DNA of 64,000 bases from Oceanispirochaeta sp. (lineage in GTDB: Bacteria; Spirochaetota; Spirochaetia; DSM-2461), in assembly GCA_963663385.2 (NCBI GenBank), contig CAXXXD010000003.1, forward strand, positions 64,001 to 128,000, given 5' to 3'. Below are positions 49,145-63,945 of this stretch, piece after piece. Made by a program: the position numbers and the translations under genes. How positions within the stretch are numbered: position 1 is the first letter of the stretch; the number at the start of each line of letters is the position of its first letter. Under the pieces are notes generated by a model, which was not told the origin of the DNA, searched no databases, and saw nothing but the letters and a program-made list of their open reading frames with translations.

Positions 49145-51373
49145 TCAGTCGAATTTCCCCGCGATATCCCGGTCTATTACGTACATGCACACCTCTTTCG
49201 CCCCGTTTTCCGTATACTTGTAGCGGCTCATGAGTTTATGGATCAGAAAAGTGACATCCTTACGGATTTTCTTGTCATGGCTTTCAAAGTTTTTTGTCCC
49301 GTACTCTTTAACAGCATTGCGGAAGCTGTCGCTCTCCTTGAAAGGTTCCAGCGCTCCGGACTTCAGGTTGCGACTGTACATTTCCAGCAGATCCCTGTAG
49401 AGAACGGTCTGGCTCAGTTTCTTTTTCTCCACCTGAATCTCGGCAGCAGTAGAAGAAATATACCGTTGCTGGATCTCGTTGCGAAAAATTTTCCTTTTTT
49501 TATCGTCCGGCTTCCCTTCAATCAGAAAATCCTCAATGCTGTGAAGAAAATCCTCGCTCACCTCTACAATCTGATTGGTATAACTGTTCTTTTCCACTGC
49601 GCCGATATCAAAGTTCATACTGAATATGTAGTTCTGAATATCCTTTGATATCCTGTTCCGGTTGTAGAAGTAGAGACACTCCTTAACCTGCTGGAGTATG
49701 GTGTAGTCATAGGAATCCACAAGGGATTCCAGGAATTTCTCCGGGATCCTCTCCTTGATATCCTCATTTTTATTGAAAAAATCAAGGAGCATCTGCATAT
49801 TTATCAATTTTTCGCTTTTGGAATGGTAGAAAAAGAAATCATGGAACAGGCGGATGGACTCCCGTCCTGTGATCCCCTGAAAACCCTCGTTTTCCCCTTC
49901 CGAGAGAATCTTCCGGCGGATGGCTGCTTTAAAAGTCCGCCGGTCCTCATCCTTAATCCACTCCGGGATGATCCCCGCATAGATGTACATCTTAAGCAGC
50001 AGGAGCTGGGGGTCGCAGAACTGGCTGTATTTACTTGTGTCCCCGATCCATTCGTGAAGGGCCGGAGATTCCCGGTTCAGGCGGGAGGCTATAATCACCC
50101 TGGCAAAATCTTCCAGAATCTGGGGAAGGAAACGGTTTTTTATCCTTAATCCAAGAATATTGCAGTAGATCTGCACTTCCGTCTTATAATCCAGAACATA
50201 GGGCATCTTGATATAGATAATACGGTCCTTCAGGGCCTGGTTATCCTCCATAAACTTTTTGTCCTGCGGATTGATCAGACCCAAATAGAGGGTTTTGATA
50301 TTTTCCTCGATGGATTCCACCTTATGAATCCCGTCGCTGACAATGCCGTGAAGATCCAGCAGCCTGTTTTTATTATGCTGTTTTACATCCATTACCACAT
50401 AGATGCCGTTATTGGTCCGGGCATGTTCCGAGTGAATAACCCTTATAAGGTTAGAGTCTCCGAAAAGCTCATCCAGGGCCTGCTGAACCGCAGGATTGGC
50501 CACTGGTTTGTTTAAAATCACATCCCCCGGATTAAAGACGGAAATTCCCTCTCCCAGACGGCGGCTGTAGGGCATCCTGCGGGGATGAATCATATTGATT
50601 ACATCTTTGGGGGAGCCCGTATGATCAATCAGGGCCTTGTAGAGAGAGGTGCATACGGTACAGGGTTCGTCTTTAAAAATCCATTTATACTTTTTTTCTG
50701 TAAAAAGTTTTATTTTAAAATCTTCATCGTCAATCAGATTGTACAGAAACTCTTTTCTCTGCTCTTTCGGTATCTGGAGAATCGGCGGGTCGTGGTTCGG
50801 ACAGTTTAAAACTACCGCATCGTGGGAGAGAAGGGGCCGTATCTGCAAATTATTGTTTTGCTGCATCTCCTTGAGAAAACGCATCTGTTCCGGAAACAGG
50901 GATTTTTCAATCCGCCAGGTCGTATCGTAAATTTCACCTTCATCGGTTTTCATATAGGATTCGAAACGGTCCAGAAAATTCTTTAAAAAAGTGCTCTTGC
51001 CGCTCCCCGGAGGGCCTTCAAATATATAGATTTTGTTCCGGTCCACCACCTGGTCGAAGGAGTTGATAAGAGCCATAAACCGGTTTCCGAAGAGGCGGTC
51101 CGCAAAGTAGGGGGATTCGCTTTCCCTGATAAAAAGGTCTGTAAAATTGTAGGCCATGTAGCTGACGGTTTCCGGGTCATCAGGGAACTCATCCACTCCC
51201 GGAGGAACATAGTAGAGAACCATATCGTGAACCAGCTGAAAAATATCCCGCAGAAGCGTCCTGGGCCGGTCCTTCAGTTTTTCCAGATAGTCGGAAAAGG
51301 ATATTTTAACCAGCTGCTTCTCCCTGCTGAGATTCCGGTACAGTTCATTCAGGTTTTCCTCTACTCCGGCCAT
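49145..51373 (-). CDS. PrkA/YeaG-family AAA+ protein (second paralogue)
   Basis: GPPGSGKST Walker A, ARTNNGIYV, YVLDYKTE; start set at 51373 after GGAGG. Confidence 0.8.
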   Translation of the reverse strand: MAGVEENLNELYRNLSREKQLVKISFSDYLEKLKDRPRTLLRDIFQLVHDMVLYYVPPGVDEFPDDPETVSYMAYNFTDLFIRESESPYFADRLFGNRFMALINSFDQVVDRNKIYIFEGPPGSGKSTFLKNFLDRFESYMKTDEGEIYDTTWRIEKSLFPEQMRFLKEMQQNNNLQIRPLLSHDAVVLNCPNHDPPILQIPKEQRKEFLYNLIDDEDFKIKLFTEKKYKWIFKDEPCTVCTSLYKALIDHTGSPKDVINMIHPRRMPYSRRLGEGISVFNPGDVILNKPVANPAVQQALDELFGDSNLIRVIHSEHARTNNGIYVVMDVKQHNKNRLLDLHGIVSDGIHKVESIEENIKTLYLGLINPQDKKFMEDNQALKDRIIYIKMPYVLDYKTEVQIYCNILGLRIKNRFLPQILEDFARVIIASRLNRESPALHEWIGDTSKYSQFCDPQLLLLKMYIYAGIIPEWIKDEDRRTFKAAIRRKILSEGENEGFQGITGRESIRLFHDFFFYHSKSEKLINMQMLLDFFNKNEDIKERIPEKFLESLVDSYDYTILQQVKECLYFYNRNRISKDIQNYIFSMNFDIGAVEKNSYTNQIVEVSEDFLHSIEDFLIEGKPDDKKRKIFRNEIQQRYISSTAAEIQVEKKKLSQTVLYRDLLEMYSRNLKSGALEPFKESDSFRNAVKEYGTKNFESHDKKIRKDVTFLIHKLMSRYKYTENGAKEVCMYVIDRDIAGKFD

Positions 51374-51403
51374 TTTGACCTCCCTCACTCCTTAATCGTC
51401 CTC

Positions 51404-51570
51404 GGCCTCCCCATTATCCCCTCAATGGGAGGGGAACCGAATTGACGTCTCCCCTTTGGGGAGATTGAGAGGGGCTCGGATGGTTAACCCTCACCCCTTA
51501 ATCCCCCTGGTCGTAAACTACGTTTACTGCTCTGGCATGCATCCGGCCTCTCCCAGAGGGAGAGGGGGTT
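51404..51570. repeat. Cluster of REP-like palindromes within the prkA operon
   Basis: TCTCCCC-TTT-GGGGAGA (51448-51464) plus TTGAGAGGGGCTCGGA, CCCCTTAATCC and CTCTCCC-AGA-GGGAGAG (51548-51564). Confidence 0.65.
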
Positions 51571-51572
51571 TT

Positions 51573-53174
51573 TTACAATTGTTTGCGGCTTATCTTCCGG
51601 TCTTTCATGGTGTAACAGACCCTCTGTTTCATCAGTATCGTTTCCTCCCCTTTCTTTTCGTAGTACATTTCTGTCGTTTCCAGTTTTACAGGGTTTCCCC
51701 ACAGGTATTCCAGTCCCATCATGGTGTTGGGGATATACTCCTTCATAAGCGGTTTCCCCTCGTCCCGGTGACACAGGTAGAGGGTATTCTCATCGGTCTT
51801 CTCCTTATCAACCCGGATATCCGGAGGGTGCCAGAGGCTGTCCAAAAGCATGGCCCTGTATGCATCGGCCCCCTTGCTTTTTATGACATACTCCCAGGTC
51901 TGCCGGGGCGCATTCAGCCGTTTTTCAACCGTATAGAGTTTGTTGCGGTTGATAAAATCCTGATCGACAAAGCGGTTTATCAGTGTAAAATCGCAATACT
52001 CCTCCCGCAGCTTAAACAGAAAATCCGTTCCCTTGCCGGTATTCCGGTTGTACCGCTTCCGGTCTTCTATCTCGTGCAGTTTTTCAAACTCATAACTGAT
52101 CCGTCCTTTTTCGGCCAGGTCCTCAATATACTCCATCAGACGCATCCCGATGGCATAGGGGTTCAGCCCTATCCGGGGGAGGGATGTCACCATGGCATGA
52201 ACCCTGGCAAAGTCCACTTCATGTCCGCATATTCTTTTATCTTTGAGAAAGAGCCGCTCGTGCCAGTAACTGGCCCAGCCTTCATTGAAGATATGGTCCC
52301 GTCTCTGGGGATCGAAATAGAGGGCCGTGTCCCGCACTACATGGATAACCGATTTCATCCATCGGTTTTCCTCTTTCTGCAGAAAAGGGGAGGCATTGAG
52401 GATATATTCCAGAACATCCCGGGAGACGGTTTCTTTCTTCTGTTTGTATCTTTCGAAGAATGAATCGAATTCGGGATAGAGGGATTTGGCTTCCGTGAAG
52501 AAGAGGGATTCTCCTGTTTCAGGAGACGCCTTCTGCAGTTCGTTATAGCGTTTCAGGTTTTTCAGGTACTCCCCGTGAGAGACCTTCCTGATATCCTGAA
52601 GAAAGCTGTCAAAGTAGAAATCCATCTGCGGACTGTAGCGGCCTGTGTTTTGTGTGTGGAGGGCTGACAGTACTCTATAGAACCCGAGGATATTGTCTGC
52701 TCCCCGGGCAAATTCGATAATATAATCCACCCAGCGGCCGTATTCCGACCGCAGCCGGGCAATAAGCCGCTTATCCGCCCGGGCCCGTCCCAGAAAATCA
52801 TCTCCCCAGGTATGTTTAAAGAAGGTGTTGTTCTGGAAAAAGTCGATATGCCCCAGAACATGGTAGAAGATCATCACATTGAGCCAGTCCGGGTTGTTGT
52901 CGTTATAGAACGAAACGGCCGGGCGTGTATTGATAACCGTCTCGTAGGGATTGGTGGGGTAGAGCTTGTACTTTCCCTTCTCCTGGAGCACCCTGACATC
53001 ATGAACCCAGTAGTCGTAGATGGTGGGGATCATCATTTTGGGGGAGAGTTCCAGCATATCCTGATTGGTAACGACGTACTCCAGGGTTTCATTGTCAAAA
53101 CGAAGGCCTTCGTCCCGGGCGCGTTGTTTGCACTCTTCCATTATGGCTTTTACATGCTGATCTACCAGGGTCAT
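51573..53174 (-). CDS. SpoVR/YcgB-family protein
   Basis: YETVINT.P, HVLGHIDFFQNN, FNEGWASYWH, NPYAIG, YLWG.PV.LET. Confidence 0.92.
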   Translation of the reverse strand: MTLVDQHVKAIMEECKQRARDEGLRFDNETLEYVVTNQDMLELSPKMMIPTIYDYWVHDVRVLQEKGKYKLYPTNPYETVINTRPAVSFYNDNNPDWLNVMIFYHVLGHIDFFQNNTFFKHTWGDDFLGRARADKRLIARLRSEYGRWVDYIIEFARGADNILGFYRVLSALHTQNTGRYSPQMDFYFDSFLQDIRKVSHGEYLKNLKRYNELQKASPETGESLFFTEAKSLYPEFDSFFERYKQKKETVSRDVLEYILNASPFLQKEENRWMKSVIHVVRDTALYFDPQRRDHIFNEGWASYWHERLFLKDKRICGHEVDFARVHAMVTSLPRIGLNPYAIGMRLMEYIEDLAEKGRISYEFEKLHEIEDRKRYNRNTGKGTDFLFKLREEYCDFTLINRFVDQDFINRNKLYTVEKRLNAPRQTWEYVIKSKGADAYRAMLLDSLWHPPDIRVDKEKTDENTLYLCHRDEGKPLMKEYIPNTMMGLEYLWGNPVKLETTEMYYEKKGEETILMKQRVCYTMKDRKISRKQL

Positions 53175-54370
53175 TCTTCTATCAGCTCCTTTATACTGTC
53201 CACAACCTGCCCCTCATCGGAATCCTCCTTCAGGGTGGAGAGACGGAGCCTGTCCTTTCTGCTTTCCAGGAATCCGGATTTTTCCAGATACTTTTCGGCT
53301 GTCGTCTGCCCCGGCTGCCGGTAGGGTGCCGCAACCACTGTTATGCCGATACGGTTGGCGTAGGTCAGCATTTTTTCCAGGGCTTTGACTGCTTCATCTC
53401 CGCTGGAGTCCAGGTCGTCCCCGTCTGTTCCATGAAAAATGTAGATATTGTAATCCCGGGCCAGGGTCTCTTTTTCTACAATCTCATTGACAAATTTGTA
53501 GGCCGAGGCGATAAAAGTTCCTCCTGCGATGCTGAGGTTGTAATAGGTATAGAAGTCGGGCACTTCCTTTGCCTCGTCATCGTGGAGGATAAAGCGGGTC
53601 TCCACCTGTTTTTCATACTGGTAGGACAGCCAGCTGTAGATCATCAGATGCTGAGAGGTTACAATCTCTGTCGGTTTGCCGTACATGGATGCCGAATAGT
53701 CCCTGATAAAAAACACCAGAGCCTGGGCCTCATAGTCCTTCTCCCGGGAGAGAACACGGTAGACCTTGTCCCGCGGATCCACCAGGAACTTCGATGAATC
53801 GATATTGTTGATGTCCGGTACCCTTCCCAGGGCCTGATTAGTCCGCACAATTCTTTTTAGGGTTGCTTTTTTATCCAGAAACTGCCCGAAACCGCGGTTT
53901 TTATCGGTCATCTCATAGCGGTAGCGGGTAAAGGTTTTTTTCTTGCCCCGGTCCTGCAGGTTGGGCAGTTTAAACTTTTCCGTCAGGATCTTGCCCAGGT
54001 CGTAGGCGGAGGAACTTACCTCATGTTCGCTCCCTCCTCCCTGTCCGGCTCCTCTGTCCCCCTCTCCCTCTTCCTGATGGACGGGGACTTCTCCCAGGAC
54101 TTCGCCCTCTTCGCCGTCCCCGGCTCCACCGGTCTTTTCGTTTTCGCTGCTGTTGTCCTTAAAGCGGATCGTATCGTGGTAGAACTTCTCCTCGTCCACG
54201 GTGGGAACGATGATTATCTTGTCCTTTCCCGCTTTCCCCGGACGGAAGATGCGCCCCAGTCGGATCTTCCGGGGAAAACCGTCCTTTTCCCGCTGTTTAT
54301 CCCTGTCCAGAAGGTCGTCAATGGATTTCAGAGCCTTGTGATAGTAGCTGTTCCGATCCTTATCCGCCAT
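53171..54370 (-). CDS. YeaH/YhbH (DUF444) vWA-like protein
   Basis: Gly-rich G.G.G region, LPNL, DYSASM MIDAS, GGT.IASAY, FHGTDGD. Confidence 0.9.
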   Translation of the reverse strand: MADKDRNSYYHKALKSIDDLLDRDKQREKDGFPRKIRLGRIFRPGKAGKDKIIIVPTVDEEKFYHDTIRFKDNSSENEKTGGAGDGEEGEVLGEVPVHQEEGEGDRGAGQGGGSEHEVSSSAYDLGKILTEKFKLPNLQDRGKKKTFTRYRYEMTDKNRGFGQFLDKKATLKRIVRTNQALGRVPDINNIDSSKFLVDPRDKVYRVLSREKDYEAQALVFFIRDYSASMYGKPTEIVTSQHLMIYSWLSYQYEKQVETRFILHDDEAKEVPDFYTYYNLSIAGGTFIASAYKFVNEIVEKETLARDYNIYIFHGTDGDDLDSSGDEAVKALEKMLTYANRIGITVVAAPYRQPGQTTAEKYLEKSGFLESRKDRLRLSTLKEDSDEGQVVDSIKELIEE

Positions 54371-54385
54371 ATAAAACCTTCTATT

Positions 54386-56443
54386 TCAGGATTCATCCTC
54401 CAGGGTCGTGTAATACTCCAGTGTCTTTTCCGCACAGGTCCGGCAGTAGTTCAGTTTCCCTATCATGGTATCCATCAACCGGTTGTAGAGCTTCTGGTTC
54501 TCTTCATCCGTCCGGTTGGCCAGGGCTCCCACCAGGCTCCCGGCGCTGCCGATATCCGAGTTAAGCCGAACTTCCGTCACCGCCATAACCAGCTCCAGAT
54601 TATCCATGAAATTGTAGTTTTTCTCTGTGGCGATCTTCTGACCGTAGAGCTTGCGGATAGTGGTCCGGAAGGATTCCCGCTGTTCTTTCGTTTTCAGTCC
54701 CATCCTTTCTTCCACGCTTTCGATATACCGCTCGTCAATCTTGATCGCCGTCAGTTCCCCCGTCTGCGGATCCGGGTACTTCCACATTTTGTCGGATCCC
54801 AGGGTTTCCGCGTCGATTCCCACAATCATATTCACATAGTTCATCACGCTTTTCTCTATGGCCTTGGGCTCGTCCATATAGGCGTCGAAAATCTCAACCT
54901 TGATCTTTTCCTTGTAGAGCCCCTGGGCAATTTTCAGATCCTCCAGATACTTGGCCCGGTCTCCCGGTTCCTGTATATAGTCCAGAATGATGGTTTTGAG
55001 GGCTTTGAAAATGTCCTTGGCAAACATGCATTCCCCCTCATTGGTTTCCGAGCTTTCCAGTACCAGCTGAATGGCCCGCCCCAGGTTCCTCTGTCCCAGG
55101 CCCTTCTGACCGAAGCGTTTGGTAATATCCGCTTCGGACTGAAGATCGTCAATAATCTCCCGGAGGGATTTGATGCTCTTTTCTCCCGCCACTTCCCCGG
55201 CAGCCAGCTTCATCATCTCGATGGGGGTCATCTTGTCTGAGCGGGGCAGGCGGCTCAGGGTGACCGCAATGGATGAGGCGTAGTTGAAATTCGGGTCAAT
55301 GTGCAGGGATGACTTGCTGAAGGTTGTCTTCTCCCTTCCCCCCAGAGCGTATCCTGTCAGATCCGACTGCAGTTTGTAATCGGTGTTGTGGGACACATAG
55401 CACAGGCGGCAGCGGTCAACGATAGGGGCCTCTTCCCTCTCCGACAGGAACTTGTTGAACTCGGCGTTATTGCTGGTGGCGATGATCAGGGTGTCTATGG
55501 GCCATTTGAAACCGTCCAGTTCAATGGTCCTGTTCTGAATGACCCCCAGGTATATCTGGACCAGGTCTCTCTTGTTTTTGAAAATCTCATCGCTGAAATG
55601 GATTCCCCCTCCGGCCACCCTGGCCAGAGCCCCTCTTCTCAGGTCGAAACGGTAGGGGTTGTTGGTATCGGAGATATGGAGCAGACGCTGGATGGATTCC
55701 TCTCCCAGAAGGTCAACGGAGGAGGAGGTTATTTTATCCTTTGCGGGGTATTTCCCCGTCACGGTTCCCAGTGTTTCGCTTAAGGGGACGGGTACTATAG
55801 TGATGAATCCCTTCATGGCCTCTACATCCCCGCCTGTATAGCGGCGCAGATCTTCCAGAATATAGGAGGAGCAGGCCCCCAGGGGAGCGTAGTTGGCATA
55901 AAGCGCTTCCAGGGCTTCATCCCCGAATCCCAGTTTTCCCAGCCAGGTACGGTTTTCCTCTTTCGTCTCATAGAGGTTCATGGCCAGTCGCATGGGGTCC
56001 TCATAGGTCTGGGACTCTATACGCCCTATCATGCCGTAGGTTTCCAGTTTGTCCAGGTTATTGAACCGGAAGGTATAGCGGTGACACTCCGGCAGTGCCA
56101 GATAGCTGCGGTAGAGGGAACAGAGGTATTCCACAAAAAAAGTTTTTCCATTTCCCGGTTCCCCGATCAGAACATAGGCCATCTCCGAGGAGGATCCGTT
56201 TTCCGCGGCGTCTTTTACATAGCTGACAAAACTGTTGATCTCGTCGTACATGCCGATTATATGCTTGGGCCCCTGTCGGAAAACCTTGAAATCGTAGGTT
56301 GTCCGTCCGTTGACTTTGACTTTTTCTATCATCTCCGGATCATCCAGAATCAGGTGACAGAGCGATTGGTAGATGTTCTCGAATTTTCTCTTTCCGGAAA
56401 TAACCTGTTTGACGTGATAATCCAGGCTTAAATTCTCAGCCAT
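54386..56443 (-). CDS. prkA: PrkA/YeaG-family AAA+ protein
   Basis: GEPGNGKT, DEIFK, IIATSN, DRC; first gene of the prkA-yeaH-spoVR operon. Confidence 0.85.
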   Translation of the reverse strand: MAENLSLDYHVKQVISGKRKFENIYQSLCHLILDDPEMIEKVKVNGRTTYDFKVFRQGPKHIIGMYDEINSFVSYVKDAAENGSSSEMAYVLIGEPGNGKTFFVEYLCSLYRSYLALPECHRYTFRFNNLDKLETYGMIGRIESQTYEDPMRLAMNLYETKEENRTWLGKLGFGDEALEALYANYAPLGACSSYILEDLRRYTGGDVEAMKGFITIVPVPLSETLGTVTGKYPAKDKITSSSVDLLGEESIQRLLHISDTNNPYRFDLRRGALARVAGGGIHFSDEIFKNKRDLVQIYLGVIQNRTIELDGFKWPIDTLIIATSNNAEFNKFLSEREEAPIVDRCRLCYVSHNTDYKLQSDLTGYALGGREKTTFSKSSLHIDPNFNYASSIAVTLSRLPRSDKMTPIEMMKLAAGEVAGEKSIKSLREIIDDLQSEADITKRFGQKGLGQRNLGRAIQLVLESSETNEGECMFAKDIFKALKTIILDYIQEPGDRAKYLEDLKIAQGLYKEKIKVEIFDAYMDEPKAIEKSVMNYVNMIVGIDAETLGSDKMWKYPDPQTGELTAIKIDERYIESVEERMGLKTKEQRESFRTTIRKLYGQKIATEKNYNFMDNLELVMAVTEVRLNSDIGSAGSLVGALANRTDEENQKLYNRLMDTMIGKLNYCRTCAEKTLEYYTTLEDES

Positions 56444-56536: not shown

Positions 56537-56552
56537 ACTAACTAAAGTTAGT
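56537..56552. promoter_or_regulatory. Palindromic box 1, ACTAAC-TAAA-GTTAGT
   Basis: Identical to 59696-59711; lies upstream of TACAAT (56577-56582). Confidence 0.7.
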
Positions 56553-56615
56553 ATTCTCTTCACGGGGAGCAGGGGGTACAATTACTGTATCAAATAAGTA
56601 ATCAAGTGATGTGTT

Positions 56616-56861
56616 ATGGTATTGTCAAAGAGATCCTTACAGCCCCCTGTCGGGGTATTCAGAAGTCATAGAATCCCGGGAATACTTAAAAGCGATCTGA
56701 AATATCTGTTGATAAAAGATCAGCCCGTTACCTGTTTCTGCTGCGGCATGGAACTGGAATCCCGGGAGGTCGGGGTTATCGCAAAGGGGCATACAAGGGT
56801 TGCCTGCAGTTGCAGAAATGCTTCCTGTATTCACTATTTAATGGAGAATTTCCATGAATAA
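56616..56861 (+). CDS. Small Cys-rich hypothetical protein (possible zinc ribbon)
   Basis: CFCC and CSC...C motifs; its stop overlaps the next start. Confidence 0.5.
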   Translation: MVLSKRSLQPPVGVFRSHRIPGILKSDLKYLLIKDQPVTCFCCGMELESREVGVIAKGHTRVACSCRNASCIHYLMENFHE

Positions 56862-58047
56862 ACTGTATGCCCGCATCGCCCGGGTGGCGGTAAAATATGC
56901 TGTGTGCAGGCGGATCCGGAATTTCTTCGGATCAGGTTACGGTCAGTTCTGCATACACTGGCTGCACCATAAAGACCTCCTTTCTCCCCTTGAAGAAATC
57001 GAGGATGCTCACTTTATTCCGGTTTTCAACGAGTCGGATTCTCCCGCCATCCAGTCTCTGCAGGCCTATCAGTTCAACCTGTCCATCTCCTATAAAAGAA
57101 GGGCCCGGACAATTACAGGCATATACTACAGGGCTCTGGAAGCGGCTCTGCTGAGGGGGTTCGCCTGTTCCATGGGATCCGAAGCCGAGGAGGCCTTCTA
57201 TACTTATTACGCTCCCGCAACAGACCGGAATCCCGAACTGAAGCGGGTATACAATCAGATGATTTCTCTGGATAAACAGAATCTCCTTCGCACTGTCTTT
57301 CTCACAGAACTGGATTACCTGCCCGCTGACGGGAGGGATTACAGCGAGGATCTGGCGGGGCTTCTGGATTACCTGGAAGATCCCTCAAGGGGGGAGTGCT
57401 ACCTGAAAGGTCCTATCCGTATAGGCCTGCTCCCGCGGGATCCCCAGGTTATTCTCTCTGTGTATCAGAGAGCTGTCTGTGAACGTTTCTACAGAGTCGG
57501 AGTGCCCAATATCCTGCCGGCCAGCAGACGCCAGATTGATTATAGAACCTTCAGCAATCTTGTTCTTGATGCTGATCTCAGACCGGGGGGGACCTTTACG
57601 GGACGGATGGTGATGTCGGGTCCCGGCGCTTCCGTATTTGACCGGAACGGTTTAAGAGGGGTTCTTTACAGGGAGGAGTACAGCTGGAGTCTCCGGGAGT
57701 GCAGACTGAAGGAATTCTTTGAGGGTGAGGAGTGTACTCTGGCCATAAAAAGCATCGACTGGGTAAGGGGGCGCATCCTTCTGACCGGCAGGGGCAGGGA
57801 AACAGATCCCAGGGAACGGGCCGGTTTTCCGGAGGTGTATTCCATTGCCAATGTCCGTGTGGTAGAAGAAAATCACTGCTATATGCTTGGTTTGTACGGC
57901 AAAGAGTTTGAAGTTATTCTGCCCAAGAGCGAGCTTTTACCGGATCGGTTCGGTTCCGTTCATAATATGATAGGCAGGGATTATAAGGTGATGATCTATC
58001 ACAAGGACAGGGATTCCCGTCTATACGGGAGCATCAGAAAACTGTAG
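56854..58047 (+). CDS. Hypothetical protein with two C-terminal S1-like OB folds
   Basis: G.L...EYSW..FEGEE....IKSID...GRILLT and ILPKSEL..IG....V.I..SIR patterns; SD GGAG. Confidence 0.65.
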   Translation: MNKLYARIARVAVKYAVCRRIRNFFGSGYGQFCIHWLHHKDLLSPLEEIEDAHFIPVFNESDSPAIQSLQAYQFNLSISYKRRARTITGIYYRALEAALLRGFACSMGSEAEEAFYTYYAPATDRNPELKRVYNQMISLDKQNLLRTVFLTELDYLPADGRDYSEDLAGLLDYLEDPSRGECYLKGPIRIGLLPRDPQVILSVYQRAVCERFYRVGVPNILPASRRQIDYRTFSNLVLDADLRPGGTFTGRMVMSGPGASVFDRNGLRGVLYREEYSWSLRECRLKEFFEGEECTLAIKSIDWVRGRILLTGRGRETDPRERAGFPEVYSIANVRVVEENHCYMLGLYGKEFEVILPKSELLPDRFGSVHNMIGRDYKVMIYHKDRDSRLYGSIRKL

Positions 58048-58059
58048 AAATCCAGGACC

Positions 58060-58944
58060 CTAGAAATTCCATTTGCATTTATCCAGCAGTTCCTGACGGG
58101 AACGTACTTCCATTTTTTTAAATATTTTACTGAAGTACTGTTTTATTGTTCCGGTGGTTGTTCCGAGGTTGTGGGCAATCTCTTTGTTGGTCAGATGGGG
58201 GCTCTGGCAGAACTCCCGGATAATCGCTTCCTCACTGGGGGTAATTTTAAACTTTTTCAGATCCACAGGTTTTCTGGAAAGCCCGAGCTTCTCTATCCGT
58301 TCCTCCAGCTCTTCTATGCGGAACGCTTTGCTCTGTATCTCCTGATGATGCTCCCGGATTTCTTCTTCCAGCTGTTTTTTTTCCTTCTCCATAGCGGAAA
58401 AGGTCTCCTGTGTGGTCTTTTCGAACTTGAGAATATGGTTTATTTCGCTGGTGTATATCAGGTAGATAATGGTCAGGAAGAATATGAGGTACAGGGTTAT
58501 ATTTATGCTTGACCCTATATGGTCGTCCCCCGATACGGATATGGAGAATTCCAGAAAAACCATTGTGAACAGGCCCAGCAGGATTAGTTTCTTCCGGGTA
58601 TGTTTCTCCAGAAGTCCGTAGCGGTAGGCAAGCATCAGTGAGAGCATGATAAATCCCATTCCGTGAAAAGCATCATACTGATCCATCAGGGACAGAGCCC
58701 CGTTAATAAGAAAAATGGCAATCTGCAGGTACTGAATCAGGGGGCTCTGTATTTTTCTGGTAAAAAACAGGATAAGCGAAAACAGAAAGATAAACAGGAA
58801 TGACGGGAAAATCAATGCTTCCAGTACGGTCGCATGCCACGTAGATACCAGTAAGATGAAGTTTACCATACTTACGGCGAAGCCAATCAGGGCTACAAAC
58901 AGGGACACCCTTTTTTGTATTTCAATGTTTTCGCTTTTTTTCAT
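58060..58944 (-). CDS. Membrane-anchored LuxR-family one-component regulator (about 6 TM, coiled coil, HTH)
   Basis: Hydrophobic N-terminal ~165 aa; ITPSE..TNKEIA..L..T.GTIK.Y..KIFKKM.V.SRQEL. Confidence 0.85.
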   Translation of the reverse strand: MKKSENIEIQKRVSLFVALIGFAVSMVNFILLVSTWHATVLEALIFPSFLFIFLFSLILFFTRKIQSPLIQYLQIAIFLINGALSLMDQYDAFHGMGFIMLSLMLAYRYGLLEKHTRKKLILLGLFTMVFLEFSISVSGDDHIGSSINITLYLIFFLTIIYLIYTSEINHILKFEKTTQETFSAMEKEKKQLEEEIREHHQEIQSKAFRIEELEERIEKLGLSRKPVDLKKFKITPSEEAIIREFCQSPHLTNKEIAHNLGTTTGTIKQYFSKIFKKMEVRSRQELLDKCKWNF

Positions 58945-58987
58945 AATACTATATTTTAAAATGGTTATTGAATTTTGTTAAACAATA

Positions 58988-59554
58988 TTATACATCCCAA
59001 TATGATTCAATCCCCGGGCCTATATCCAGTATTTCATCCATTTTGGGGCAGGACACGGAAAGGACCTCTTTTCTCAGATTTTCATTGGCGTTTTCAAATT
59101 TCCATGCGCCCATATTAATGGGGTTGTACTTTCTGTTCCGTTTGTCCTCTACGCTGTCCATTTTGTGGTCCGCCAGCATGGCCAGGGCCAGGATATTCAT
59201 CCCCCTTTTTATAATAATCTCATTCCCTCCGTCAAAGTGACTGATCCGTTCGAGTCGGGTGAACAGGTTGTCGTTATCGGAAAAATTATGAAGAAAAATG
59301 TCCTTTCCTCTATCCGAGGCGGCTATTACATATGTGGCAAGATGAGAGAGCGCTATCCGCTGAGGATTGCGGCAGTCGGCCAGAAAGGGGAGGGCCGCAA
59401 CCAGTTTCATTATTTTATGACTGGTCATTCTGGCCCTTTTCATTGGAGAGAAATGAAAGAGAGTCGAAATCCTGTCAACCATATCGATCCACTGTTCTTC
59501 TGTGAAGAGCGCTTCCTGTGGAGGTTCAGCCTTTAATTTTTTTTCCTGAATCAT
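58988..59554 (-). CDS. Hypothetical alpha-helical protein with an acidic D...D...D....KYNP motif
   Basis: 188-aa ORF with SD AGGAG; family not recognised with certainty. Confidence 0.75.
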   Translation of the reverse strand: MIQEKKLKAEPPQEALFTEEQWIDMVDRISTLFHFSPMKRARMTSHKIMKLVAALPFLADCRNPQRIALSHLATYVIAASDRGKDIFLHNFSDNDNLFTRLERISHFDGGNEIIIKRGMNILALAMLADHKMDSVEDKRNRKYNPINMGAWKFENANENLRKEVLSVSCPKMDEILDIGPGIESYWDV

Positions 59555-59694
59555 AATATTCTCCTGAATGTTTGAGGATAACTATATTGTAAGACGCGGA
59601 ATATTAGCTGTACAGACTCGGAATCGCTGATATTGACAGGTTCAAAAACAGGTTTCTTTATCTCTTTTTAGTATAAGTAAATACTGTTTTAATG

Positions 59695-59712
59695 TACTAA
59701 CTAAAGTTAGTA
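59695..59712. promoter_or_regulatory. Palindromic box 2, TACTAAC-TAAA-GTTAGTA
   Basis: Perfect 7-4-7; centre at about -40.5 relative to a minus-strand TATACT -10 (59675-59670). Confidence 0.7.
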
Positions 59713-59758
59713 GGAATGAGGCCGTATTTTACGGGGTTTTACAGCTGTTTTTGAGGGT

Positions 59759-59774
59759 ACTAACCAAAGTTAGT
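59759..59774. promoter_or_regulatory. Palindromic box 3, ACTAAC-CAAA-GTTAGT
   Basis: One substitution relative to boxes 1 and 2; centre 63 bp from box 2. Confidence 0.7.
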
Positions 59775-60032
59775 CGGTTATATGCTTTTGCAGAACGGGA
59801 AACAGGCATAAAATAGCGAGTGCCTTCAATAAAGGACCGGTGTAAGCCTTTGATGTCCGGGTTTATTTTACACCATTCGTTTTGCAGGCATATTTAAATT
59901 TTGTAATTGTTATTATAGAGAATATTGGTATACTAATCAAGGCGTTTGTTCCCGTTATTTGAGAATATTGTTTATTAGTGTTTATTCTGTGTGTAGTGAT
60001 TTGGTGGTTGGGGACGTTGCAGTGAGATTGAA

Positions 60033-60200
60033 GCAGGAAAAACCCTTTATTCTCATATTGATATTAATGAATATATAAGAGAGTCAGTTAAAGAAAAATC
60101 ATTTGCAAAATGGTTTGCAGAAAAAGTCTCTACTCATCCGCATTTAACAAAACGTATTAGATACATTTTGGAAATCGGAAAAGAAAATGCTGCCATATAA
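60033..60200 (+). pseudogene. 3' remnant of an M48 (HtpX-like) metallopeptidase gene
   Basis: Frame lacking a start reads AGKTLY..WFAEKVSTHPHLTKRI..stop; STHP...KRI is the M48 C-terminal motif; absent from the ORF track. Confidence 0.65.
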
Positions 60201-60301: not shown

Positions 60302-61213
60302 ATGAAAAATAAACTGGATTCTGAAGACTATAGGAAATATACAACAAGAAGCGAATATGACAAAGCAATTCATACCCTAGAAGGCCTGTTATCAGGAATA
60401 TCAATAGATAATAAAATAGACAAACAAGAACTGCAGGAATTAAAAAATTGGTGCAGTGACAATAATAAATTCCTGAAGAAACAACCGTTTAAAGACCTTA
60501 TCCCCTATATCATAGAAGCTCTGGAAGATGATTATCTGGATGAGGAAGAGCACAATAACATAATCCAGATGTGCAAGTATTTTAAAAGCGGCAGCAAGTA
60601 TTACGACATAGTGACATCCGACCTGCAAAGGCTGCAGGGGATAATGCACGGAATTATGGCAAATAATGAAATCTCTGATGAAGAGATACACGAACTGGAT
60701 ACCTGGATTGAGCAAAATGATCATCTGATAGGCTTATACCCCTATGATGAACTTTACAGTCTTTTACTTGCCGTACTGGAAGACAATATTATTACGGATA
60801 CGGAAAGAAATATTCTTAAAGTATTCTTTAGCGATTTTATTCCGGAAAGAGATTCCTCTACAATCGATTATCCCGAAATAGAAAAATTGAAATCTGCAAT
60901 TATCATTCCTGGTTTAACAACCAGTAACCCGGATATTGTATTTCAGGATAAAGTATTTTGTATATCCGGAAAGTTCAGGGACAATAAAAGAAGTGATATT
61001 GCACAAATGATTACGGATCTTGGCGGTACTTTTAAAAGTGGAATGAGTAAGGACGTTGATTATCTGATAGTTGGAACAGAAGGAAACCCAGCATGGGCCT
61101 TTTCCTGCTATGGAAGAAAGATAGAATACGCCACAAATCAAAGAAAACAGGGTAGTCGAATCCAGATAGTGAGAGAAGAAGACTTTATCGATGCCTATGA
61201 GGATAATTTATAA
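60302..61213 (+). CDS. BRCT-domain protein with duplicated TerB-like helical N-terminus
   Basis: GLLSGISIDNKI..E and GIMHGIMANNEI..E repeats; FCISGKF..GG....S..VDYLIVG..W..YGRKIE; start set at 60302 after AGGAG. Confidence 0.8.
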   Translation: MKNKLDSEDYRKYTTRSEYDKAIHTLEGLLSGISIDNKIDKQELQELKNWCSDNNKFLKKQPFKDLIPYIIEALEDDYLDEEEHNNIIQMCKYFKSGSKYYDIVTSDLQRLQGIMHGIMANNEISDEEIHELDTWIEQNDHLIGLYPYDELYSLLLAVLEDNIITDTERNILKVFFSDFIPERDSSTIDYPEIEKLKSAIIIPGLTTSNPDIVFQDKVFCISGKFRDNKRSDIAQMITDLGGTFKSGMSKDVDYLIVGTEGNPAWAFSCYGRKIEYATNQRKQGSRIQIVREEDFIDAYEDNL

Positions 61214-61321
61214 ACACAACGAAAGATTACATCATATTTGAAGGGATTTTATTACTTATTGAAACAGGGAATTAAATACAGCTGTAATGAAAACATTAAG
61301 AAAATGTAAAGAAATGAAATC

Positions 61322-62137
61322 ATGGATCTGAAACGTATATACAAAATCATTGAACCGGCAGAAGGCGGCGATAAAGCCAGCAGAATATTCGATATCTCAA
61401 TCATACTCCTGATTATCATCAACATCTTTGCCGTAATATTAAATTCTTTTTCCAATCTTACTCCGGGTACAGCCGGGGTACTGGATTTTATAGAGATCGT
61501 ATCCATCGTGATATTCACAGCGGAATATCTGTTGCGGCTGATAACGGCGGCTTACAAATTTTCCCATGGGAAAGCCTGGATGCCCTATCTCCTGTATATC
61601 TGTTCGCCTATGGCAGTTATAGATCTTCTGGCCATATTGCCTTTTTATCTGCCCTTTATAATCCGGGTCGACCTGAGAGTCCTGAGAATGTTAAGGCTGG
61701 TACGTTTGCTTCGTATACTCAAATTGAACCGGTATACAAAATCCATGAAACTGCTGGGAAGGGTAATAAAAAGAAAGAAGGAAGAACTGCTGGTTACTGT
61801 ATTTATAACAGGAATCCTTATGCTCCTGGCCTCCTCCATGATGTATTACATCGAAAATGAAAGCCAGCCCGATGCCTTTTCCAATATCATAGCTTCTTTC
61901 TGGTGGGCCATCGCCACCCTGACCACAGTTGGATACGGCGATGTATATCCCGTTACCTTTCTGGGGAAAATCATGGCCGGTCTGATCGCCTTTCTGGGAA
62001 TTGGATTAGTGGCCCTGCCGACCGGTATTATAAGTTCGGGGTTTATAGAAGAAGTAGAGAGCCGGAAAATGATAAGGAAGGGCAGATCCCGAGTTAAAAT
62101 CAAAAGGAGAAAGAGGAAACGGAGATTAGAAATCTGA
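61322..62137 (+). CDS. Voltage-gated-type potassium channel (ion transporter)
   Basis: S4 LRVLRMLRLVRLLRILK; selectivity filter TTVGYGD. Confidence 0.93.
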   Translation: MDLKRIYKIIEPAEGGDKASRIFDISIILLIIINIFAVILNSFSNLTPGTAGVLDFIEIVSIVIFTAEYLLRLITAAYKFSHGKAWMPYLLYICSPMAVIDLLAILPFYLPFIIRVDLRVLRMLRLVRLLRILKLNRYTKSMKLLGRVIKRKKEELLVTVFITGILMLLASSMMYYIENESQPDAFSNIIASFWWAIATLTTVGYGDVYPVTFLGKIMAGLIAFLGIGLVALPTGIISSGFIEEVESRKMIRKGRSRVKIKRRKRKRRLEI

Positions 62138-62304
62138 TTCCTGCTTTACTATAAGTGGTAATTCATAGGTCAGTATACAGTGTTTGCTGTATTGCATTGT
62201 GCATAATATCGGGAAGATACAGCGGTATAGTACGATGATGGATAATCAGAATCATCCTAAAGTTTTTTTAGATTCTAATAATTATACAAGGAATATAAAA
62301 TCAA

Positions 62305-63945
62305 ATGAAAAAAGGGACATATATCTCACTATTCTTATTGCTTTCATTAATCTCATGTACATCATTCAGACCTCAGGTAACAGAGGAAGAAGCACTGAAT
62401 TCATTCAGGTTAATTGAAGATGGAAATCTTATAGAGATTAAAAAACTGATAAAACGGGGAATGGATCCCAATTTTCAAGCAGCATTCGGTTTAACACCAT
62501 ATCAGTATGCTATAGAAAAGAATCAGGTAGAGATCGTATATTACCTGACAGATCATGGTGCAAATATCAATTACAGTAATTCCTTAGGGCTCGACTCCTT
62601 ATTAATGGCTATCAGCTATGATCATAAGGAGTTAGCTGAATTCTTAATTGATCAAGGTACTAATCTCTCATCAACAGATATCCAGGGATGGACGCCCCTG
62701 ATATATGCTATTAAACAGAATATGCCGGATCTGGCAATAAAACTTATTGATAGAGGCGCAACAATTTATGGGACAACCAATCAGGATTGGACTCCTTTAT
62801 TATTTTCTGTACGAACAAAACAGGAAGAGGTTTCCTGGAAGCTGATAGAGGAAGGTGCAGTTATAGATCAACCTTCAGATCTCGGGTGGACACCTTTGAT
62901 GTTTGCTCTGGAATATGAACAACCTGATATTGCAAAAGAACTAATAGTACGAGGTGCAGACATCCGTCAGCAAATTTCTTCAGGGCATACACCTCTAATG
63001 TTATCAATAAAAAACAGTTATTATAAACTGGCGGAATATATGATTCAGCATAATGCGGATGTTAATGCAATAACCTCCTCAAACTGGACTCCGCTTATAT
63101 ATGCATTACAATACAATCAGCCTGATATTGCCAGGATGCTTATTGAAAAGGGCGCAGAGGTTAATGTCGCCAATGAAAATGGCTGGACTCCTCTTATTTA
63201 TGCGCTGAGAAACTATCATACGGAAATCGCTTATGAACTCCTGGAGAAAGGTGCTGATATAAACTCTGTAAGTTCTGATGGTTGGACCACACTGATGTTC
63301 TCACTGAGATATAACCAACCAGAGATTGCTCGGCTTCTTATCGAGATGGGCGCGGAAGTTAATACAGTAGATAATGATCATTGGTCTCCATTGATGTACG
63401 CCTTAAGAAATGATCAGCCAGAAAATGCGAGGCTTTTAATTGAAATGGGAGCAGAAATAAATATGCATAATGATTATGGCTGGACACCGCTTCTGTATGC
63501 TTTGAAGTATCATCAACCAAATAATGCACAACTACTTATCGAGAATGGAGCAGACCTGGATTACAAAGGTGACGATGATTGGACACCTTTAATGTTTGCA
63601 TTGAGATATAATCAGCCGGAGAATGCAAGGCTTCTTATTGAGAAAGGTGTCGAAATAAATGCTAGAGATGATAAAAACAGGACACCTCTTATGTTGGCTC
63701 TGAGTTTTAATCAACCGGAATGTGCACAACTCCTAATTGAAAGAGGAGCAGATGTAAATGCAAGCAATGATGAAGGTTGGACACCATTAATGTTCGCAGC
63801 TTGTTATTCACACCCAGATATAGTTACTACTCTTTTAGAAAGAGGTGCATATCTTGAATTGAAAAATAATAAAGGGAGGACCGCTATGGATATTGCGGAT
63901 ATCTATAACAAAGCAGAGGTTATCGATATTTTCAATAATCTATAG
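62305..63945 (+). CDS. Ankyrin-repeat lipoprotein (about 15 repeats)
   Basis: Lipobox LSLISC; 33-aa GWTPL..A...LI..GA..N repeats. Confidence 0.93.
   Translation: MKKGTYISLFLLLSLISCTSFRPQVTEEEALNSFRLIEDGNLIEIKKLIKRGMDPNFQAAFGLTPYQYAIEKNQVEIVYYLTDHGANINYSNSLGLDSLLMAISYDHKELAEFLIDQGTNLSSTDIQGWTPLIYAIKQNMPDLAIKLIDRGATIYGTTNQDWTPLLFSVRTKQEEVSWKLIEEGAVIDQPSDLGWTPLMFALEYEQPDIAKELIVRGADIRQQISSGHTPLMLSIKNSYYKLAEYMIQHNADVNAITSSNWTPLIYALQYNQPDIARMLIEKGAEVNVANENGWTPLIYALRNYHTEIAYELLEKGADINSVSSDGWTTLMFSLRYNQPEIARLLIEMGAEVNTVDNDHWSPLMYALRNDQPENARLLIEMGAEINMHNDYGWTPLLYALKYHQPNNAQLLIENGADLDYKGDDDWTPLMFALRYNQPENARLLIEKGVEINARDDKNRTPLMLALSFNQPECAQLLIERGADVNASNDEGWTPLMFAACYSHPDIVTTLLERGAYLELKNNKGRTAMDIADIYNKAEVIDIFNNL

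Follow-up and report, generated by a model that had tools for sequence, protein, structure and literature searches.

What does a membrane-bound regulator of the LuxR type do when its gene is paired with that of a small protein and flanked by copies of a single palindrome? The question is raised by a locus of the spirochaete Oceanispirochaeta sp. (assembly GCA_963663385.2), situated in a 64,000-nt stretch of contig CAXXXD010000003.1 (positions 64,001 to 128,000, hereafter the window) within a genome of 5.3 Mb in 4 contigs (G000; G-numbers denote the genomes compared). Here, four open reading frames (ORFs) form two convergent units, just as an earlier note on this DNA had described. One unit encodes a Cys-rich ORF and a protein with S1-like repeats, and the other encodes a protein of 188 amino acids (aa) and a transmembrane (TM) LuxR regulator, TM-LuxR. 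The conserved core of the locus is the two-gene unit comprising the 188-aa gene and TM-LuxR, and our analysis suggests that it represents an undescribed two-gene system of cell-to-cell signalling in spirochaetes. The four genes are as follows.

56616..56861, + strand: Cys-rich 81-aa ORF (CxCC ... CxC); a real gene, judging by its orthologues
56854..58047, + strand: 397-aa protein with a helical N-terminal half and two S1-like repeats; genus-restricted candidate regulon target
58060..58944, - strand: TM-LuxR receptor, 294 aa, matching GerE at an expectation value (E) of 1.9e-8; predicted reader of the palindromic box
58988..59554, - strand: 188-aa protein, proposed signal source, with the motif DHxxDxxxDxxxxKYNP and Trp186

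A small gene and its membrane receptor

Relatives of the 188-aa protein occur in 28 of the 61 genomes compared, and TM-LuxR in 27 of them; across the phylum, the family is present in 10 of 301 genomes. It comprises at least 320 clusters at 50% identity. Named records come from Oceanispirochaeta, Spirochaeta, Alkalispirochaeta and rumen Treponema, and among ten clusters looked up, one belonged to Spirochaetota, one to Bacteroidota and the rest carried no taxon label. A receptor gene encoding three to six TM segments adjoins the small gene in 49 of 59 de-duplicated loci (the window's own locus counted), mostly directly downstream and at times in divergent or convergent orientation. The synteny that the earlier note had asked about is thus conserved. 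A strict pairing is countered by the ten loci that lack an adjacent receptor, three of which lie at contig ends, while seven are true orphans within about 1.5 kb. On balance, the 188-aa gene and its receptor almost certainly constitute a functional pair.

The window's own receptor consists of about five to six TM helices (five hydrophobic segments by hydropathy), a coiled coil and a C-terminal LuxR/GerE helix-turn-helix (HTH), with GerE above the cut-off at residues 251-287. Pfam found no receiver domain in it. With TM helices and a DNA-binding domain in a single chain, it is organised as a one-component regulator, and by profile search its TM domain is present as a single copy in the genome. 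Among relatives, the C-terminus is a histidine kinase in several clades and a LuxR HTH in others. A profile built from 23 LuxR-type TM domains only recovered 15 of 16 kinase-side ORFs at E<1e-3, and the best other ORF in the window's own genome reached E=0.014. HATPase_c was present in all five kinase-side receptors tested, and the kinase label changes at least three times on the tree of the small protein. One sensor domain with a constant partner gene and an exchangeable output would fit the pattern of a signal and its receptor. Searching Atlas with the receptor TM domain gave leads only (unnamed clusters at 0.89-0.90; MASE7/MASE2/MASE6 at 0.87-0.88), and a mirror-tree correlation between the small protein and the sensor (rho 0.34) carries no weight as evidence here, common ancestry being a confounder.

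The pair also varies in its composition. Tandem arrays of two or three TM-LuxR paralogues stand behind one small gene, or occur with none (L014/L080 in G030:C142; L118 in G009:C92), and orphan receptors occur in G008, G018 and G037; both could possibly be eavesdropping receptors. Elsewhere, the small gene or the receptor is broken by stops, frameshifts or insertion sequences (L022, L165 (G013); L013 (G033); L032 (G022); L070 (G348)). Social genes are often interrupted. Lipoprotein genes lie divergent from the small gene at L093, L094, L071, L073 and L074, and at L094 a C39-peptidase-type ABC exporter, recognised by eye, is also divergent from it; these are recurring kinds of target.

The palindromic box and its probable reader

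The palindrome and the promoter elements near it are placed as follows.

56537..56552, no strand: box 1, ACTAACTAAAGTTAGT; probable activator site of the Cys-ORF/S1-like operon
56577..56582, + strand: -10-like hexamer TACAAT, 24 bp after box 1, setting the box centre at about -44.5
59670..59675, - strand: -10-like hexamer TATACT for the unit of the 188-aa gene and TM-LuxR, at 20 bp from box 2 and setting the box centre at about -40.5
59696..59711, no strand: box 2, ACTAACTAAAGTTAGT; putative autoregulatory site of the two-gene core
59759..59774, no strand: box 3, ACTAACCAAAGTTAGT; 34 bp before TAAAAT, the spacing of four other genomic boxes
59787..59814, + strand: sigma-70-like promoter TTTGCA-16-TAAAAT, apparently pointing to the low-GC genes from 60302

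All three copies of ACTAAC-N4-GTTAGT, at 56537, 59696 and 59759, were confirmed with zero mismatches, and the earlier statement that the window holds no further box is true even at two mismatches. Throughout the genome there are five exact copies, compared with about 0.004 expected from half-site counts, and N4 is the sole spacer of exact half-site pairs when spacers of 0-12 are scanned. Allowing at most one mismatch yields nine copies, six of them outside the window. All nine share a YAAA spacer (consensus RCTAACYAAAGTTAGY, or RCTAAC-YAAA-GTTAGY), and all nine are intergenic, though long ORFs cover 87% of the genome. The box motif is real, and it is not private to the four-gene cassette. The nine boxes are predicted to mark a small regulon.

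The position of the boxes points to activation. A -10-like hexamer lies 20, 24-25 or 34-35 bp from eight of the nine boxes: 20 bp at box 2, 24 bp at box 1, 25 or 35 bp at C4:650693, and 34 bp in five cases, box 3 included. These spacings would put the box centres near -40, -44 and -54, upstream of or overlapping the -35 element, which is where activators bind. The promoter geometry that had been proposed for boxes 1 and 2 therefore holds, and the hexamer distances support activator positions. In relatives, TAAGAT (G007) and TAGGAT (G003) stand at the same offset from box 1 as TACAAT, and TAAAAT in G007 at that of TATACT from box 2. Further, in G007 and G003 the 12-bp box core occurs about 157 bp upstream of the 188-aa homologue, and in G012, G017, G050 and G018 the distance is 55-140 bp. 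The notion of a conserved pair with an upstream box, engaged in positive feedback, is consistent with this arrangement.

Which regulator reads the box? Proximity to the receptor gene is by itself weak evidence, because the genome encodes 23 LuxR-type HTH proteins above the cut-off. Covariation was scored with the core TAAC-YAAA-GTTA (at most one mismatch) upstream of the small gene and with the recognition-helix residues that follow T/S-V/I, which are K-Q in the window's class of receptor. The core was present at seven of eight scorable loci with a K-Q helix, at none of 15 other LuxR loci and at none of 11 kinase loci. Both loci with K-N-H carry two copies each of a different palindrome, TGACAC-N4-GTGTCA/TTA, and a third receptor group has TCA(A/T)CC-TTTT-GG(T/A)TGA upstream. 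The tally leaves out 12 loci with an unclassed helix (one of them with the box and with a receptor truncated at a contig end), nine loci without a receptor (one has the box) and three at contig ends. Since the box covaries with the recognition helix, TM-LuxR is very likely its reader, as had been supposed.

Several observations pull the other way. Besides the abundance of LuxR-type HTH proteins, the K-Q receptor locus of G030 lacks the box, no box lies near the orphan K-Q receptors of G008 and G018, and the G008 genome contains no copy of the 12-bp core at all. In the window's own genome, the 45 bp next to box C1:39057 contain no -10-like hexamer. Because the K-Q loci are kin, the covariation does not amount to 23 independent trials.

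Another regulator might read the box instead; examples are LexA and the NarL-type response regulators encoded beside the box at C4:650693. The gene of a NarL-type response regulator does have a box 141 bp upstream, another box precedes an integron integrase, which is a classic SOS target (PMC8876359), and the 23 LuxR-type HTH proteins would supply further candidates. Yet an SOS (LexA) identity was rejected, there being no box at recA or at lexA, where the best match has five mismatches to the core. Moreover, the box tracks K-Q receptors across genera, divergent layouts included, and changes with the recognition helix, and no box lies upstream of intI at any other integrase locus examined. We regard a different reader as very unlikely.

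Boxes also occur in G006, a member of the same genus with a K-Q receptor. Ten of its 11 core matches are intergenic, and therefore a regulon exists there too. By eye and from N-terminal sequence, boxes of this genome (L109, L107, L111) precede, besides further genes, an HTH/WYL-like regulator and others of the defence-island type. Matches in some other genomes were set aside. Seven of the eight RCTAAC-N4-GTTAGY matches in G013 are one repeated stretch, whose flank we take to be the 5' end of 16S rRNA, and matches to the 12-bp core in the low-GC genomes G013, G018 and G059 often fall inside ORFs and are largely chance.

These results bear on the earlier account of the locus as a closed circuit of four genes, with an RNA-binding S1-like output and a possible effect on the divergent prkA operon, a version to which looping between boxes 2 and 3 may be added. 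Both G003 and G007 do retain the convergent arrangement of four genes, with a box on either side. However, the genome scan found six further boxes, so a self-contained unit is rejected, and the S1-like gene occurs in 3 of 61 genomes, as against 28 for the 188-aa gene, which is not the distribution of a general output. The relatives also lack a second box 63 bp away and have a different divergent neighbour. In the two closest relatives there is a single box at the place of boxes 2 and 3, and the meaning once attached to their 63-bp spacing is unsupported because box 3 fits a rightward promoter of its own. Box 3 probably serves that promoter and not the two-gene core as a second site. As for prkA, in both relatives box 1 stays with the Cys/S1 operon beside another gene, presumably the GTPase TypA, and it does not follow prkA. 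As a whole, the closed circuit retains hardly any credibility.

The 188-aa protein as a candidate source of signal

A structure model of the 188-aa protein, built from 131 sequences, has a predicted local distance difference test score (pLDDT) of 93.7 and a predicted template modelling score of 0.89, with the last eight residues at pLDDT 69. When the model was compared with 48,161 solved chains, class I isoprenoid synthases, terpene synthases or UbiA-type prenyltransferases filled 49 of the 50 best rows, the sole exception standing at rank 48, and a shallower model gave the same picture. The best match was MoeN5 (Z 8.5, root-mean-square deviation (rmsd) 4.5, 161 aligned). These matches lead us to predict a reduced class I isoprenoid-synthase fold.

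Residue statistics, taken from the 142 of 165 retrieved proteins that are 160-230 aa long, identify P56, R66, H89, D93, R100, G110, G118, D133, D137, K142, Y143, N144, P145 and W186 as conserved, with Arg100, Asp133, Asp137 and Asn144 at 86-99%. A pattern resembling the second Asp-rich motif of the synthases is present in 115 of 142 homologues. The family pattern, (D/G)(Y/H)xxDxxxD...KYNP, is Asp-rich and differs from the pseudo second motif of ComQ, NDxxx. At the other end of the chain, Trp occurs within the last five residues of 126 of 142 homologues, compared with 148 of 3034 control ORFs (4.9%). Trp186 is three residues from the end in an alignment column that is 99% Trp, and the columns flanking it are among the most variable.

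The synthase reading must be weighed against a substantial body of contrary results. For helical bundles, a Z under about 13 can reflect a common arrangement, as the search tool itself warns. Foldseek gave no significant match (best E 0.46), Pfam polyprenyl_synt matched no family member, and hhalign against 22 spirochaete polyprenyl synthases did no better than 20 shuffles (probability 0.18); its alignment, not above those shuffles, set H89 and R100 on the HDD and RRG motifs. Searches of the PDB by profile and of Atlas (0.9 level) offered no sequence-level proof of a synthase fold, and DUF5685 matched 16 of 131 members weakly (best E 9.6e-5). A canonical first DDxxD is found in only 6 of 142 homologues, with HxxxD[DN] at that place in 85, and 30 of the 142 have Gly instead of the Asp that opens the second motif. 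The protein has neither a signal peptide nor a TM segment. Inspection by eye of the long ORFs around 15 loci revealed no conserved peptidase or exporter.

We propose the following circuit. A TM-LuxR dimer would bind RCTAAC-YAAA-GTTAGY just upstream of weak sigma-70 promoters and activate them, as position and covariation imply. Its own unit would be among its targets, giving positive feedback. Other targets in this genome would include the genes for two lipoproteins and for a secreted HtrA-like protease, the Cys-ORF/S1 operon, and the region with the cassette promoter at three attI copies of integrons. Judging from linkage, the 188-aa protein would be the source of the signal sensed by the TM domain. 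Its isoprenoid-synthase-like body may attach a prenyl group to the Trp in the protein's variable C-terminal tail, or present that Trp for prenylation, and the modified tail would then be cut off, leave the cell and bind the TM sensor of neighbouring cells. Given the rest of the circuit, the chemistry of a prenylated Trp tail has about even odds. A quorum-sensing-like circuit with positive feedback and a prenylated C-terminal Trp peptide as its signal falls a little short of an even chance.

Two other roles for the 188-aa protein leave the circuit or the linkage intact. It could be a small-molecule synthase, making a terpenoid or prenylated metabolite in the manner of CqsA/CqsS-type pairs, with Trp as a lid or catalytic residue. 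MoeN5 and the terpene synthases among the top structural matches act on small molecules, residues to about 180 are modelled with high confidence, so that the tail may fold back on the body, and no conserved protease or exporter is evident among the long ORFs of the 15 loci. Nevertheless, the last eight residues have the lowest model confidence, and a Trp 1-5 residues from the end amid highly variable columns is more like a peptide pheromone. We consider this role rather unlikely.

Alternatively, the protein may be a pseudo-enzyme, a non-catalytic cytoplasmic partner. It would have a prenyl diphosphate or metal as ligand and control the receptor by direct contact, held to the membrane or the TM domain through its Trp tail, with no signal exported. 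The rarity of a canonical first Asp-rich motif, the Gly in the second, the lack of a secretion signal and a strict one-to-one linkage that suits a physical partner equally well would all agree with this. The invariant Arg100, Asp133, Asp137 and Asn144, however, resemble a retained diphosphate/metal site, and the extra orphan receptors and positive autoregulation are typical of signalling between cells. A contact regulator of this kind is accordingly judged improbable.

The proposed peptide signal invites comparison with the ComQ-ComX-ComP-ComA system of Bacillus subtilis and with StheQ/StheX and PalQ/PalX. As in those systems, a protein of synthase fold (here predicted) goes together with a C-terminal Trp in a variable peptide (PMC5331326, PMC13731918, PMC10853753, 10.64898/2026.08.29.745113), the invariant Trp being the sole feature common to ComX pheromones (PMC5331326). 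As in ComQXPA, a multi-TM sensor is encoded next door, the output is a LuxR/NarL-type HTH and kinase versions of the receptor exist. Unlike ComQXPA, there are two genes instead of four, with body and Trp tail in one chain of 170-200 aa, no separate gene for a short ComX precursor and the receptor gene directly following the 188-aa gene. Sensor and HTH are one chain without a phosphorelay here, unlike ComP/ComA, the kinase versions being confined to other loci. ComQ-family enzymes have an isoprenoid-synthase fold whose first DDxxD binds Mg and the prenyl donor (10.64898/2026.08.29.745113); the 188-aa protein lacks a canonical form of that motif, is about 100 residues shorter than ComQ and shows no supported homology to it at the sequence level. 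It therefore resembles a single-chain ComQ and ComX yet does not pass the test for ComQ motifs; although it would work in the manner of ComQXPA, we do not class it as such.

Resemblance to MoeN5 and the trans-isoprenyl diphosphate synthase fold is similarly partial. The best matches have Z 8.5-7.9 over some 160 aligned residues and a sequence like the second Asp motif is shared, but the protein has about 180 residues as opposed to 260-330, an rmsd of 4-5 A, about 10% identity and no canonical first motif. The receptor, for its part, is like the transmembrane one-component regulators of the ToxR/CadC type, in which a DNA-binding domain is fused to TM helices, and Spirochaetota are reported to be rich in transmembrane transcription regulators (PMC10269533). 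It differs in its multi-pass sensor, C-terminal LuxR HTH, dedicated partner gene and autoregulatory box, and the accessible text of PMC10269533 names no such system. Within the open-access full-text literature, we found nothing on the gene pair, a fused ComQ-ComX or the operator, and no description of peptide- or prenyl-based quorum sensing in spirochaetes.

Targets of the predicted regulon and their meaning

Beyond the core, the Cys-ORF/S1 operon is the nearest candidate target. Homologues of the Cys-rich ORF (26-38% identity) lie directly upstream of the S1-like gene at two loci, in G003 and G007, where the operon converges on TM-LuxR and the box stands 24 bp before a -10-like hexamer; operon and box are thus kept in convergent layout in 2 of 60 relatives. 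The window's 81-aa ORF is shorter at its N-terminus than its orthologues and matches no Pfam family above the cut-off. A profile of six homologues of the 397-aa protein matches, via its C-terminal part, the genome's ribosomal-S1-like ORF (E=6e-16), and the single sequence reaches only E=0.13 against the PDB. In G003 and G007 there are also paralogues of the 397-aa protein that lack an exact box. We view this protein as a local regulon member outside the core, perhaps serving as an RNA-binding output. On the far side of box 1, window positions 49145-56443 (- strand) hold an ordinary four-gene operon of prkA, DUF444, spoVR and a second prkA.

To the right of box 3, a low-GC run (36-44%) at window positions 60302-63945 (+ strand) encodes BRCT-domain, ion-channel and ankyrin-repeat proteins. 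At 60000-60200 (+ strand), a 66-codon frame without a start ends in STHPxLxKRI, which we take to be the C-terminal motif of M48 (HtpX-like) peptidases; it is probably a gene remnant between the box 3 promoter and the BRCT gene. No attC-like site was found in the 26 kb after box 3 by a scan that detected three and one in two true arrays.

Behind the distant boxes lie genes for two lipoproteins, a secreted HtrA-like protease and, on the divergent side, a NarL-type response regulator, together with three integron promoter/attI copies. The boxes of the integron regions (C2:1687617, L001; C3:727342, L003; C4:1177455, L002) each stand 34 bp before TAAAAT. Because their downstream sequence is shared, the three copies count as one event; the box has been kept while its flanks have drifted. 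Only one copy has intI beside it (TIGR02249, 380.6 bits, cut-off 265), and attC-like hairpins occur behind two of the three. The first three genes after the attI-like site beside intI encode LmuC, LmuB and LmuA of a Lamassu system, and at C1:39057 (L004) the box is followed on the same strand by a lipoprotein gene and then a second Lamassu system.

The box is not the attI recombination site itself, since the attI-like stretch common to the three copies is distinct from it, about 140 bp farther downstream. Nor is a box upstream of intI a conserved trait, for among 27 integrase loci of the family (two cut by contig ends, six with an uncertain start) it is found in this genome only. The integron wiring is consequently local. 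The arrangement recalls the CRP-activated Pc of the Vibrio cholerae integron, in that an activator site between intI and attI could drive the cassettes (PMC8876359), but TM-LuxR is the candidate activator in this case, and among the integrase loci examined the site is peculiar to this genome.

In its fullest form, the proposal would be that spirochaetes run peptide quorum sensing on two genes. The small protein would be a self-prenylating fusion of ComQ and ComX, its metal site non-canonical, and would serve a single-chain receptor and activator; variants of tail and operator would act as separate 'languages', and in this genome the wiring to Lamassu-first integrons would provide density-dependent defence. 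We advance this whole as tentative and, taken together, doubtful.

The new elements are the operator and the way it covaries with the recognition helix, together with the regulon and a connection, local to this genome, with integron promoters. The module is widespread in free-living and rumen spirochaetes, and it comes with a predicted operator, a named candidate reader, a specific residue proposed for modification and a short list of targets. If the link between the circuit and integron-borne defence, seen in this genome only, is true, it would represent a new route to density-dependent phage defence. If the proposed chemistry is true, the pair would be the smallest form of ComQXPA-like signalling, combining a self-modifying prenyltransferase with a membrane one-component receptor that has a defined ligand.

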